Source: Escherichia coli (GTDB lineage: Bacteria; Pseudomonadota; Gammaproteobacteria; Enterobacterales; Enterobacteriaceae). From it: a DNA stretch of 64,000 nucleotides. The DNA is taken from assembly GCF_030384885.1 (NCBI RefSeq), contig NZ_CP128613.1; one strand, given 5' to 3'. How positions within the stretch are numbered: the stretch's first letter is position 1; the number at the start of each line of letters is the position of its first letter. A model generated the notes under the pieces. That model searched no databases. It was not told the DNA's origin and saw only the letters and a list, made by a program, of their open reading frames with translations. A program made the position numbers and the translations under genes. Shown one piece after another: positions 4,283 through 9,653 of the stretch.

Positions 4283-4443
4283 AAAGATGAGATAATATTC
4301 GAAACGCTACGGCGATAGCAAGTAGCATCCCCTTCAGTTCAATATAAAAGTTCAAGAATCAACCAGAGGAATCAAAAAATGTTAATGATTGCACTGCAAA
4401 GTAAAACCACATTAACATTTATGAAATAGGAGTCAGGGAAAGC

Positions 4444-5454
4444 TTATCGATAATACACTTCAAAGGTGGCGACAGAATTAACCAGACCACTTTTTACATT
4501 ACCCGTTTTGATATAACGCGCCTTTAATGGGATGTTAACATTTTGATTTAAAGTGGTTTTTTCGATAACAGTATACTCTGTATCAAATGCTATAACATTG
4601 TTATTACTGTCCAGGATCTGCAGGCCAACACCTTCCGCCATCCCCGATCCAGACTCAATATTGAGAATATTATTACTCGTTATCCCCGTGGATCCTGCGG
4701 AGGTGAAACGGTAATCAACCTTTACATCCTGGGAACAATTTTCAATATGAATTGAAAACCTATCATCAGAAACTACAGGTGACACATTGTTAACATCAAA
4801 ATCATCTGTTCCGATATCATCGAGTGGAACGGTAATATTCTTGTTAATAAGATCACATGTCCCTGGTATAATATTTACCGGCACAGAAATAAAACGAAGC
4901 TGTCCTATAACAAGATTGTCATACTTCCAGTCAGCAACTAATTTACTGGTGTCAATGACTCCATTACCGACAGGCCCTGTCACAACAAACTGAATAGCTG
5001 CATGTATTTTTATCGGATAAACATATCCTCTATTCACTATTGACGAGCCTTTATGCCATGGTGTTATTAAATAACCTGAGGTGAGTTGCGCATTAACGTT
5101 ATTCGCCCATGCAGCACGAAAACCAATCCCTGGAACATTCGTCTGAAACACATCATGAAGGGGGTTATCGGTACGCAAATCGCTATTTGTCAAGACGGTA
5201 AACCCTTGCCAAATGTCACCATTCGCCGAGCAGGAAACTGAAATTGAATTACTAGTAGCTTCGAGTGTGGTAATAATCGTTCCCGGCTCTGCATCGTTAT
5301 TAACATCTAACGCTGGAACTGAGAATTCTATTTTTGCCGGATTTCCCCCATTTCCCGAAATGCTGCAACCGGCGAAAGCCTCAGGAATGGCAACTAAGGC
5401 AAGAAATATTATAGTCAGTAATATTTTTACATAAGAGAAAAATCCTGGCTTCAT
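4444..5454 (-). CDS. Fimbrial tip adhesin (two-domain: N-terminal receptor-binding domain plus C-terminal pilin domain)
   Basis: 336 aa, signal peptide MKPGFFSYVKILLTIIFLALVAIPEAFA; last gene of operon; C-terminus ATFEVYYR parallels the major pilin C-terminus; size typical of FimH/F17-G class adhesins. Confidence 0.8.
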   Translation of the reverse strand: MKPGFFSYVKILLTIIFLALVAIPEAFAGCSISGNGGNPAKIEFSVPALDVNNDAEPGTIITTLEATSNSISVSCSANGDIWQGFTVLTNSDLRTDNPLHDVFQTNVPGIGFRAAWANNVNAQLTSGYLITPWHKGSSIVNRGYVYPIKIHAAIQFVVTGPVGNGVIDTSKLVADWKYDNLVIGQLRFISVPVNIIPGTCDLINKNITVPLDDIGTDDFDVNNVSPVVSDDRFSIHIENCSQDVKVDYRFTSAGSTGITSNNILNIESGSGMAEGVGLQILDSNNNVIAFDTEYTVIEKTTLNQNVNIPLKARYIKTGNVKSGLVNSVATFEVYYR

Positions 5455-5475
5455 TATTCATTCATGTCCTGTTTG

Positions 5476-7950
5476 TTATCGGCACTCTATTGTGGCCTTA
5501 TAGATACCTTTGGTATATGTTTCTGGCACAGCTATAATCCCTGTACATTGCTGATTGTTCTCTTTTCCCCACTGTACCGTAAATGACATGGCATTTTGCA
5601 CACCAGTAATATAAACCTCACCATCCTCACCGACAATTGATGTACTATCCCCTAATGTCAGCAATGATCCAAAGGGTACGTATTCTTTATCGTGGAGCAA
5701 TGTCAATAATGCTCTCATACCATTACGTGCTTTAAAATTGACACCAACGACGGCACCTTTCGAAGGAATAACATCTTGTGTTGCATCAACGATATCAAGA
5801 TTATCGTGCCCCTGAGTATTTACCGTAATGGTGTTATGTCGATAATTTGTCATATTAGGAATAATCGCGTTCCCCCAATAATCAGTATAAACTCCCTGCG
5901 CATTTTGTACTTTTACATTAGCACCATCATCAATATGCACAATCGCGAATGAATCCTGTACTGATTGCCCTAATGTTACTCCATGAGTATGCGCAACCAC
6001 CGCACCTTGTGCGCTATAATTCCATTGTCGACTATTTTTATCATAGTTATATCCCAGACCAAACTCGCCTACTGAACTACGATAACGTCCATTTATACTG
6101 GCACCATAACCCACGTTATTATCGGCATAAGTTTGTTGTAAATTATAGCTAAGGTTATTATCTTGCAGAGCAGTTCCAGCAATACCCATTTGATGAGAGG
6201 TATTACCTTTGTCTGAACGATTTGCATTATACGTCGCCCATGCCCCCGGCAACCAGCGAGACAGAGGAATATTGATTGACAATGAAAATTGCTGCTCACC
6301 AGCCATTCCAGGCATATCTGTCAGTGCGTAATTAACAGACCAGCTAATATCACTCCAGCTAGTACTATAACCCATTCCTATGCTGCGTTCGGATCCTTGC
6401 ATTCCCCAATAATCTTGTTGATAACCATTAAGATAGATCGATCCCCAACGACCTATATTTTGCGAAAGATTAATTTGCAAATGGTTACGTCTATTATTGG
6501 TCTGGCGATAACTATAAATACTCTTATCATCAGGAATATCACGTTGATCAAGTGCCTCCTGAAAAGTATAAAATTGCGATGTTGAATAACGATAGCTTGC
6601 CAGATTTAATGTCGTATCAGTATCTGGAAAATCTTTCGAATACATTGCACGCCATGACAGTCCAGTTGCATCATTGTGTTCTTCAAGTTTCGTATTTGCT
6701 GCTGTGATATCAATAGAAACCGATCCCAGGCGGCCTAAGTCAGCACCAATTCCGGTCACACCAGAACGGTACATGGAGGCTCCAAGTATGCCACCATAAA
6801 TCGTTATTCCATAAGGCAAACCATATATCGCTGTTGCAACCCCAAAAACAGGTTGCTCTGATTTATTATCACTGTCACGATATTTTCCAGCAGCAACACT
6901 ATATTTTAATGCGTTTTCTCGCTGTAGGATTGGAACCGCTGAACTAGCCTGAATAAAGCTGTGTTCTTGTCCATTTGTTTCCTTGATGGTAACGTCCAGA
7001 TCGGCCCCTGCCGTTACCTGGTTTAAGTCTTTAATTTCAAATGGCCCTGCTGATACCCATGTTTGGTAAATGACATAGCCATTCTGTTTAATCACAACTT
7101 GTGCGTCGCTATTTGCAATACCACGTACTACAGGCGCAAAGCCTTGTTCACTCTCAGGCAACATACTGGTATCAGTTTCAAGTTTTATACCTGTCATTTG
7201 CACACTATCAAAAAGTTCACCATTCGTGAAAGTTTGCCCGACTTCCATCTGGCTACGTAATATTTTGATATCACGTTGCAAACTGGTGCTAATCGAATCC
7301 CAATTGGAGCCACTATAAACAGTATTATTACGTAACCGCCATACACCTAAATTCACACCTGAGTTTAAATTCAACCAATTTGAGTTCAGGTTATCACCAT
7401 CACTATTTTGTTGAGAACCACTGACATAATAACTTAACCAGGCAGCACTATCGCCATCATTCCAGTATTTTGGTGAAATACTCCCTATGGCTCTTGAATT
7501 CTGATAAATTTGAGGAATTTGCAGCCGCAGTGTTTGACTATCTAGCTGGAAGTCATAACGTGCGCCATCAATAATCTGTGAAATATCGCCAACCTCAGCG
7601 TCATCATCCATTACTTGTAACGCAGGAATGGCACCCACGTTAAGTCCTAGCTCACCGAGATCTGCCTTTGTAAAACGAGGGATAAGTTTTTTTTTGTCTG
7701 AAGAAAGAATGAACGTAATGTTTCTCTTATCAAGATATTCTTGCCCCCACATTACAGAGGTAAGATAGACACCTGGCGTTAGATTGTTATTATTAATAAA
7801 CTCTTCCAGCACTTTTGTATTTTCAAGCGGACTATCCAACTCCAGGATACGTAAGTTAAATTCATCTCGTGCATAGCTCAATGAATACACTGTAGATAGC
7901 GCAAGCGCTACTCCAGTTAAAACAAATGTACAATGCAGTGGTAGCGGCAT
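5476..7950 (-). CDS. Fimbrial outer membrane usher (FimD/PapC family)
   Basis: 824 aa; usher hallmark motifs such as LQRDIKILRSQ and GYQQDYW-like barrel segments; position between chaperone and adhesin. Confidence 0.88.
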   Translation of the reverse strand: MPLPLHCTFVLTGVALALSTVYSLSYARDEFNLRILELDSPLENTKVLEEFINNNNLTPGVYLTSVMWGQEYLDKRNITFILSSDKKKLIPRFTKADLGELGLNVGAIPALQVMDDDAEVGDISQIIDGARYDFQLDSQTLRLQIPQIYQNSRAIGSISPKYWNDGDSAAWLSYYVSGSQQNSDGDNLNSNWLNLNSGVNLGVWRLRNNTVYSGSNWDSISTSLQRDIKILRSQMEVGQTFTNGELFDSVQMTGIKLETDTSMLPESEQGFAPVVRGIANSDAQVVIKQNGYVIYQTWVSAGPFEIKDLNQVTAGADLDVTIKETNGQEHSFIQASSAVPILQRENALKYSVAAGKYRDSDNKSEQPVFGVATAIYGLPYGITIYGGILGASMYRSGVTGIGADLGRLGSVSIDITAANTKLEEHNDATGLSWRAMYSKDFPDTDTTLNLASYRYSTSQFYTFQEALDQRDIPDDKSIYSYRQTNNRRNHLQINLSQNIGRWGSIYLNGYQQDYWGMQGSERSIGMGYSTSWSDISWSVNYALTDMPGMAGEQQFSLSINIPLSRWLPGAWATYNANRSDKGNTSHQMGIAGTALQDNNLSYNLQQTYADNNVGYGASINGRYRSSVGEFGLGYNYDKNSRQWNYSAQGAVVAHTHGVTLGQSVQDSFAIVHIDDGANVKVQNAQGVYTDYWGNAIIPNMTNYRHNTITVNTQGHDNLDIVDATQDVIPSKGAVVGVNFKARNGMRALLTLLHDKEYVPFGSLLTLGDSTSIVGEDGEVYITGVQNAMSFTVQWGKENNQQCTGIIAVPETYTKGIYKATIECR

Positions 7951-9320: not shown

Positions 9321-9620
9321 AAAAATCCCTTAATTATGAGTCAATAAAGCATGATTCCATTCCAGAGAGGCTGGGCAGGACTTGATAAATATTGATAATA
9401 TAAATATATGCAAATAATAAAATTATTTTAGATTAGAGCAAAAAACACATTACATGTCTATACGACATATAATAAAAAGGTTACAACCATCTGAAATTTA
9501 AAGATTTGTTCTTATTCTCAAAAATATAAAATCATAAATTAAAAATATAAATTCACCCCATTAGATTCATTAAATAAATACTTATTATATTTATCTATAT
9601 AACGTCATAGTAATCTATTA
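9321..9620 (-). promoter_or_regulatory. AT-rich upstream/promoter region of the accessory fimbrial operon
   Basis: ~300 bp of very AT-rich, curved-looking DNA (repeated AAAAATATAAA motifs) immediately upstream of the pilin gene; no ORF of 60 aa or more. Confidence 0.5.
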
Positions 9621-9643
9621 CGCTCTCCGCATCAGCGGAGAGC
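9621..9643 (-). terminator. Hairpin downstream of mrcB (putative terminator)
   Basis: Inverted repeat CGCTCTCCGC-ATCA-GCGGAGAGC about 10 bp after the mrcB stop; no strong U-tract, so it may be a factor-dependent or REP-like structure. Confidence 0.5.
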
Positions 9644-9653
9644 TATTACGATA

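Follow-up and report, generated by a model that had tools for sequence, protein, structure and literature searches.

The chaperone-usher fimbriae that Escherichia coli carries have been sorted into 38 types, each defined by the phylogeny of its usher and by its locus (Wurpel et al. 2013, PMC3559732). One of these is the gamma* type 'ECSF_0165', for which Table S2 of that survey gives the ushers ECSF_0165, E2348C_0155, and EC958_0295; the gamma* clade holds Lpf, Lpf-like, Yra, and ECSF_4008 alongside it. An operon named ushA-ushB-ushC-ushD was described by Stubenrauch et al. (2017, PMC5717340), who reported that the UshC usher of strain E2348/69 is assembled faster with TAM present, recorded the operon in sequence type 131 (ST131) and enteropathogenic E. 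coli (EPEC) lineages, and read this distribution as lateral transfer. Here we analyze four fimbrial genes lying between mrcB and fhuA in a stretch of 64,000 nucleotides from RefSeq assembly GCF_030384885.1 (contig NZ_CP128613.1), referred to below as the window, in which all positions are counted. We are confident that this block is an intact ushABCD operon of the ECSF_0165 type (catalogued under gamma*), carried as a rare divergent allele by a member of Escherichia cryptic clade I.

The four genes and their assignment

The genes of the operon, with coordinates taken from the list of open reading frames (ORFs), are as follows.

8754-9320, minus strand: ushA, 188 amino acids (aa), predicted pilin
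7992-8708, minus strand: ushB, 238 aa, predicted chaperone
5476-7950, minus strand: ushC, 824 aa, predicted usher
4444-5454, minus strand: ushD, 336 aa, predicted adhesin

All four ORFs are co-oriented and full length in the window, and the gaps between them measure 45 bp (ushA/ushB), 41 bp (ushB/ushC), and 21 bp (ushC/ushD). By the RefSeq annotation of the matching genome, mrcB stops at 9654 and fhuA starts at 4229, with 5,424 bp in between. The ORFs, their common orientation, and their lengths all match the pilin-chaperone-usher-adhesin operon that an earlier note, made from the sequence alone, had placed between mrcB and fhuA.

UshA matches the Pfam Fimbrial family (PF00419, E = 4e-20) and has a signal peptide, an alternating-hydrophobic N-terminal donor-strand segment, VDTGIVNFNGKIV, and a C-terminal ...ATFEVFYR motif; it is the predicted major fimbrial subunit. 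UshB matches the Pfam families PapD_N (E = 3e-33) and PapD_C (E = 7e-15), and its best NCBIfam models are LpfB and FimC, with every score under its cut-off; the anchor residues Arg8 and Lys112 are present in mature numbering, assuming that the signal peptide is cleaved after AQA, and the protein is predicted to be a PapD-like periplasmic chaperone. Full-length matches to 15 NCBIfam usher models were obtained for UshC, the top model being LpfC; because the LpfC score of 681 bits is below the 1271-bit cut-off, UshC is not an Lpf equivalog. The cluster representative of UshC (listed at 100% identity) carries PF13954 (PapC_N), PF00577 (Usher), and PF13953 (PapC_C), and UshC is a predicted outer-membrane usher.

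UshD has a signal peptide, an N-terminal receptor-binding domain at about residues 29-190, and a C-terminal pilin domain at about residues 194-336. The Pfam Fimbrial family matches residues 194-335 (E = 2.5e-15), and there is a weak match to the Pfam MrkD-like receptor-binding domain (MrkDrd) over residues 51-122 (E = 0.003). An AlphaFold2 model of UshD, built with 61 homologues, has a mean predicted local distance difference test score (pLDDT) of 91; its top Foldseek matches are CupB6, FimH, FocH, and LpfD, plus the receptor-binding domains of Abp1D, Abp2D, and MrkD, and the target-normalised TM-scores against isolated receptor-binding domains are 0.61-0.69. In both the sequence and the model, the receptor-binding domain directly follows the signal peptide and the N-terminal donor strand is absent; UshD therefore looks like a tip-located subunit, and it is modelled as a two-domain tip adhesin. 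Taken together, the gene products show every feature, in sequence and in fold, that is expected of a classical chaperone-usher system whose tip adhesin has two domains, namely, the usher domains, a PapD-like chaperone with Arg8 and Lys112, a donor-strand pilin, and a two-domain adhesin.

The three usher tags given by Wurpel et al. for the ECSF_0165 type each lie 13 genes past the yad usher; on the K-12 map, with htrE at b0139 and mrcB at b0149, this puts the usher at mrcB plus 3. Since the tag spacing fits the K-12 gene map, ushers of the ECSF_0165 type can be placed in the mrcB-fhuA slot. Over its full length, UshC is 86% identical in aa sequence to the ushers of E2348/69 and SE15, and the next-nearest ushers found are at most 68% identical. 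Identities to the alleles of phylogroup B2 are 86-89% for UshA (E2348/69 and SE15; ratio of nonsynonymous to synonymous substitution rates [dN/dS], 0.07-0.10), 87% for UshB (SE15; dN/dS, 0.13), and 81-82% for UshD (78-80% in its N-terminal domain and 86-87% in its pilin domain). Across the four genes, dN/dS between the window and the B2 allele is 0.07-0.18, and both alleles have therefore been held under purifying selection.

The operon is a real, divergent member of a catalogued and named type, neither novel nor strain-specific; its proper annotation is ushABCD, of the ECSF_0165 type filed under gamma*, and labels such as novel island or F17/Ucl-like operon would be wrong. The unclassified status in which the earlier note had left it has to be given up, as the type is the 'ECSF_0165' of Wurpel et al. 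(2013) and received the name ushABCD from Stubenrauch et al. (2017). The note had also raised near-identity to an already characterised system, and here the outcome is divided: the named Ush system is indeed matched, but the proteins are only 81-89% identical, and only usher assembly has been studied in that system.

Source lineage, distribution, and boundaries of the segment

A megablast of window positions 4200-9700 against 5,426 complete E. coli genomes returned strain 2013C-4282 with a reported identity of 100.0%. Compared with RefSeq NZ_CP027579.1, the window has two single-base differences in 11.5 kb, one in fhuA (2305) and one in the usher gene (6481). Core genes of the window are 94-97% identical to those of K-12, and a 7.2-kb core stretch shows 90-95% identity to 5,357 of 5,424 genomes and about 98% to fewer than 20. 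Okuno et al. (2023) include 2013C-4282, reported as stx1-positive, in their list of complete cryptic clade I Escherichia genomes; on these sequence matches, the carrier is identified as a cryptic clade I Escherichia, either 2013C-4282 or a near-identical strain.

Of the same 5,426 genomes, 574 contain ush sequence and 571 most of the operon; all copies are chromosomal, and in every carrier inspected or listed, ush lies between mrcB and fhuA. Most carriers are ST131/B2 strains, joined by EPEC E2348/69, and the named carriers are SE15, E2348/69, and EC958 (ST131). Only two genomes have the window allele, 2013C-4282 and 2017-02-2CC (99.4% identity), and the remaining carriers are about 84% identical to it in nucleotide sequence.

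The GC content is 0.35-0.43 over positions 4250-9500 in a sliding window, versus 0.50-0.60 in mrcB and hrpB and about 0.51 in fhuA; the ush block as a whole has about 40% GC and its flanks 51-57%. The difference is also seen at third codon positions (GC3), with 0.24-0.34 in the four ush genes versus 0.53-0.62 in flanking genes. In K-12, mrcB and fhuA are spaced by 219 bp with no gene inside. No tRNA gene was found within window positions 1-14000, and neither the ORF list nor the RefSeq annotation has an integrase or transposase ORF at the ush block; no direct repeats bracket the block, the only repeats being short and at chance level. The hallmarks of an integrative island (an integrase or recombinase, a tRNA gene or attachment site, and flanking direct repeats) are all missing from the ush block.

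Homology to K-12 stops about 8 bp past the mrcB stop (window position 9646) and resumes at 4308, about 80 bp before the fhuA start. The right-hand limit of the divergent segment is thus at 4308/4309, and from there into fhuA, 192 of 195 positions are identical to K-12; the E2348/69 allele has an additional 80 bp or so in common with the K-12 intergenic region. About 160 bp of the 219 bp in K-12 is homologous to sequence downstream of ushD, and this homology is near-perfect over the last 145 bp or so in E2348/69 and degraded in the window. The other 60 bp or so of the K-12 intergenic region, including a hairpin, has no counterpart in operon-bearing genomes, and neither state is therefore a simple derivative of the other. 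The K-12 empty site was considered as a simple deletion derivative, which is ruled out by this unmatched segment and by its different hairpin.

The operon is variable within clade I: the 219-bp empty site is seen in two relatives, 2020CK-00188 and Z0117EC0005, and 2020CK-00188 is 99-100% identical to the window beside both junctions. Because an empty relative has near-identical flanks and mobility features are lacking, the comparison supports the view that the empty and occupied states are alternative segments; the two would be swapped through homologous recombination that breaks within the conserved flanking sequence, and site-specific integration would not be involved.

A contig scan with exact peptide patterns gave only 5 loci, and synteny in other genera was extended by retrieving contigs that encode usher homologues. 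The interval from mrcB to fhuA was found to hold homologous four-gene operons, with ushers 61-68% identical to UshC, in a pair of Citrobacter species, a metagenome-assembled genome of Enterobacter, and one further enterobacterium. Loci with ushers in the same identity range that are labelled at source as Salmonella enterica subsp. indica and Enterobacter hormaechei have the full context hrpB-mrcB-(four genes)-fhuA-fhuC-fhuD-fhuB. As the same slot is used in several genera, this is a locus kept across genera, not one of recent insertion; it accommodates the ush type in several genera of enterobacteria, with a presence/absence polymorphism in Escherichia.

These results divide the claims of the earlier note about the locus. 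Its description of the block as AT-rich agrees with the GC and GC3 calculations, its absence from K-12 holds at the gene-free 219 bp of that strain, and the stated lack of an integrase, tRNA, insertion sequence (IS) element, or direct repeats agrees with the ORF list and with the tRNA and repeat scans; its proposal that homologous recombination accounts for gain or loss is reasonable given the clean junctions, the clade I empty site, and the lack of mobility features. Its "strain-specific" island, on the other hand, is contradicted by the 574 E. coli genomes with ush at the same locus; nor is the block confined to E. coli, as homologous operons share the slot in Citrobacter, Enterobacter, and Salmonella-labelled loci.

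In the two Citrobacter species, the ushers are both 61% identical to UshC, whereas the adhesins are 59% and 40% identical to UshD (locus L008, 9472-10488, and locus L009, ~9493-10494). Pilin identity to UshA is 40% in Citrobacter and 62% in the Enterobacter genome. From these identities, the ush subunits seem to have been exchanged independently of the usher. Another homologous locus (L015), from an enterobacterium, has, at 2399-2839, an opposite-strand ORF of 146 aa between mrcB and the ushA homologue; it contains RHRWETELGYREIKQ, which we take to resemble an IS4-family transposase signature, and the ORF looks like an IS remnant.

A broader account, which we offer only tentatively, is that the ush locus is an old presence/absence polymorphism across Escherichia, Salmonella, Citrobacter, and Enterobacter in which the subunits have been reshuffled and the clade I receptor-binding domain has a different specificity. 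Wurpel et al. (PMC3559732) reported six types at identical loci in Escherichia and Salmonella, and the ECSF_0165 type is not among them; if the broader account is true, it would be a further type of this kind. A different receptor specificity in clade I could then matter for gut colonisation by emerging clade I Shiga toxin-producing and enterotoxigenic E. coli (STEC/ETEC).

Origin, state, and expression of the operon

Several observations weigh against the reading of the block as an intact ushABCD operon of the gamma* clade, and the first of them concern its origin. Between the window and the B2 allele, the synonymous substitution rate (dS) is 0.5-0.8, which is two- to threefold above the value of 0.25 for mrcB next to it in the same strain pair; therefore, either the alleles predate the host lineages or the ush genes evolve faster. 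The GC content of ush in E. coli is 0.40-0.42, versus 0.47-0.53 in the syntenic homologues of Citrobacter, Enterobacter, and Salmonella-labelled loci (L008, L009, L010, L019, and L021). The raised dS and this GC gap are poorly explained by simple vertical descent at the locus.

One rival account is that the block is a recently acquired, strain-specific island that entered the mrcB-fhuA interval by horizontal transfer from an AT-rich donor. It would fit the GC content of about 0.40 next to flanks of 0.51-0.57, the dS above that of flanking genes, and the absence of ush from K-12 and close clade I relatives with its patchy occurrence across E. coli, a distribution that Stubenrauch et al. (PMC5717340) likewise read as lateral transfer. 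However, the slot is filled by the same type in 574 E. coli genomes as well as in Citrobacter, Enterobacter, and Salmonella-labelled loci; an integrase, a tRNA gene, an IS element, and a direct repeat are all lacking from the block; and the empty state and the occupied one are alternative segments that share downstream sequence. Recent acquisition is therefore unlikely in our judgment, and the use of one mrcB-fhuA slot across genera tempers the published lateral-acquisition view of the patchy E. coli distribution. Transfer between lineages by homologous replacement at the ush locus is a possible part of the best explanation.

The remaining points concern the state of the operon, its expression, and its clade. 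The chaperone gene is frameshifted in EPEC E2348/69 (locus L002, 6803-7520), and IS1, ISEc13, or IS903B insertions are present in the operon of several B2 carriers; ush therefore decays in part of the population. Promoter and terminator scans around the operon score no better than shuffled sequence, so that no ushA promoter can be assigned, and as a terminator or attenuator, the hairpins in the ushA/ushB gap and after ushD are nonsignificant against shuffles. The searchable literature holds no piliation, adhesion, or receptor report for any Ush allele, TAM-dependent usher assembly being the only property tested. The predicted gamma* placement of UshC is by proxy, taken from the literature for an 86%-identical orthologue, together with LpfC as the best NCBIfam model and the higher identity to YraJ than to HtrE.

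The frameshift, the IS insertions, and the lack of a promoter above chance level are what would be expected if ush were a cryptic, decaying cluster that no longer makes fimbriae in the source strain, and under laboratory conditions many of the chaperone-usher operons of E. coli stay silent (Wurpel et al. 2013, PMC3559732). We consider this very unlikely, because the window has four full-length ORFs, dN/dS is held at 0.07-0.18 over a deep divergence, and the key chaperone residues and subunit motifs are retained. The pilin gene of the EPEC allele is, moreover, transcribed and regulated by Ler and Hfq; in two EPEC transcriptome studies, activation by Ler of E2348C_0153, which is ushA by gene numbering, amounted to 4-5 fold, and Hfq acted as its repressor.

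The noncoding features around the operon are as follows.

9321-9645, minus strand: AT-rich region upstream of ushA, GC 0.32-0.35, presumed site of the ushA promoter
9622-9643, minus strand: strong hairpin, GCUCUCCGC-UGAU-GCGGAGAGC, 11 nt past the mrcB stop
4373-4420, minus strand: AT-rich hairpin, weak, with a T6 run after it, lying downstream of ushD, fold z = -0.46
4230-4308, minus strand: fhuA upstream segment, common to K-12

An alignment of four E. coli alleles revealed conserved blocks upstream of ushA, including ...AAGTCCTG(A/C)CCAG-N5-TCTGGAATGGAATCATG.... The hairpin at 9622-9643 has a folding energy of -24.1 kcal/mol (z = -3.95), and none of 200 shuffles was equally stable. It is kept after mrcB in the operon-bearing alleles of E2348/69 and SE15, whereas empty-site genomes have a different hairpin at the same position, which in K-12 is ACCGGATGGCGAGTTGCCATCCGGT. 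The hairpin at 4373-4420, indistinguishable from shuffles, is a possible candidate for the operon terminator, and the segment at 4230-4308 is presumably the site of the fhuA promoter and Fur box. No RNA family was found by Rfam in window positions 3800-10200, and a repeat search found no fim-like invertible switch. Inspection by eye only showed no GATC sites upstream of ushA, which speaks against a Dam/Lrp switch of the pap kind. Silencing by H-NS of the AT-rich, presumed promoter region is probable in laboratory conditions, so that expression would need counter-silencing; the GC content of the region, 0.32-0.35, and the activation of the EPEC allele by Ler give weak support to such silencing.

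For an intact ushABCD operon, the reading that we prefer, family knowledge suggests the following course of assembly. All four Ush proteins would be exported by Sec, and UshB would cap UshA and UshD by donor-strand complementation. UshC would take UshD first, which would put UshD at the fimbrial tip, and would then polymerise UshA into the shaft by donor-strand exchange; no separate adaptor or terminator subunit is encoded in the operon. The N-terminal domain of UshD, with its MrkD/Abp/CupB6-like fold, would bind the receptor.

Other parts of the window also diverge from related genomes. A patch of mrcB at 10500-11100 has only 90-97% identity to each of the genomes compared, clade I relatives with 98-100% identity elsewhere among them, which points to a small segment imported by recombination from a donor that has not been sampled. 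On the other side of the operon, fhuA is strikingly variable: at 2100-3900 it has only 64-69% nucleotide identity to E2348/69 and to clade I Z0117EC0005, 89-97% to K-12, and, from 2400 onward, 99-100% to clade I 2020CK-00188; the FhuA protein of the window is 63% identical to that of E2348/69 and 86-93% identical to Citrobacter and Salmonella-labelled homologues. From these identities, the allele of this phage and colicin receptor seems to have been replaced. The yad fimbrial operon at 19883-26598 is 79% identical to K-12, versus 94-97% for neighbouring core genes, and the part at 25760-26598, which by position is probably the yadK-yadC end of yad, has no blastn match to K-12; judged by these identities, yad is a second divergent fimbrial allele in the window.

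Cryptic clade I, an emerging source of human STEC/ETEC, has its own ush allele, with the greatest differences in the receptor-binding domain of the adhesin. The pandemic ST131 lineage carries ush as well, which gives functional work an audience.

Comparison with known fimbrial systems

The earlier note had pointed to a resemblance to F17/Ucl-like systems, and the compact pilin-chaperone-usher-adhesin order is indeed common to F17 and Ucl; that likeness, which is one of organisation only, is the part of the claim that stands. An operon of the F17/Ucl-like (gamma4) family is nonetheless hardly credible here. The best models for UshC are LpfC, PRK15193, and FimD, and UshC is closer to the gamma* usher YraJ (39% identity) than to the gamma4 usher HtrE of the Yad operon (30%). 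Wurpel et al. (PMC3559732) place Yad in gamma4 with F17 and list the ECSF_0165 type under gamma*, in a column separate from F17 and F17-like, and no F17G-type or GafD-type lectin domain was found among the top 50 Foldseek matches of UshD.

Among gamma* systems, the cryptic yraHIJK operon of K-12 shares the four-gene layout, and its usher and chaperone are 39% and 36% identical, respectively. It differs in lying at another locus (agaI-rsmI), in a short and weak pilin match (26% over 80 residues, E = 8e-4), and in having no adhesin match. The UshC and YraJ operons have been reported to be mutually exclusive in E. coli (Stubenrauch et al., PMC5717340). The source strain has no yraHIJK, rsmI and agaI being 49 bp apart (locus L018, 26363-28043; NZ_CP027579.1, 4206362-4208042), which fits that report. 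However, yra is absent from all listed clade I genomes, with or without ush, and rsmI and agaI are contiguous in 1,835 of the 5,426 genomes; because clade I genomes that lack ush also lack yra, the reported exclusivity is uninformative here.

Lpf, which like the ECSF_0165 type is gamma* according to Wurpel et al., supplies the best NCBIfam models for UshC and UshB (LpfC and LpfB) and, with LpfD, one of the Foldseek matches of UshD. It differs from ush in that scores are far under the equivalog cut-offs (681 versus 1271 bits for LpfC), in its locus, and in the extra subunit genes of Lpf operons. CupB6 of Pseudomonas aeruginosa, MrkD of Klebsiella, and Abp1D and Abp2D of Acinetobacter have the same two-domain architecture and receptor-binding fold as UshD, and CupB6 is its top full-length match; they are, however, only 13-17% identical to UshD in sequence and belong to different operon types and genera, and their ligands are not transferable.

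The ushABCD operons of SE15, EC958, and E2348/69 share the slot, the four-gene order, and the gene lengths with the window operon, and those of SE15 and E2348/69 also have the conserved upstream blocks and the post-mrcB hairpin in common with it. The window allele differs from these B2 alleles in its host, which is cryptic clade I and not phylogroup B2, in its receptor-binding domain, which is the most diverged part (78-80% aa identity), and in a divergence that extends past ushD to about 80 bp before the fhuA start.

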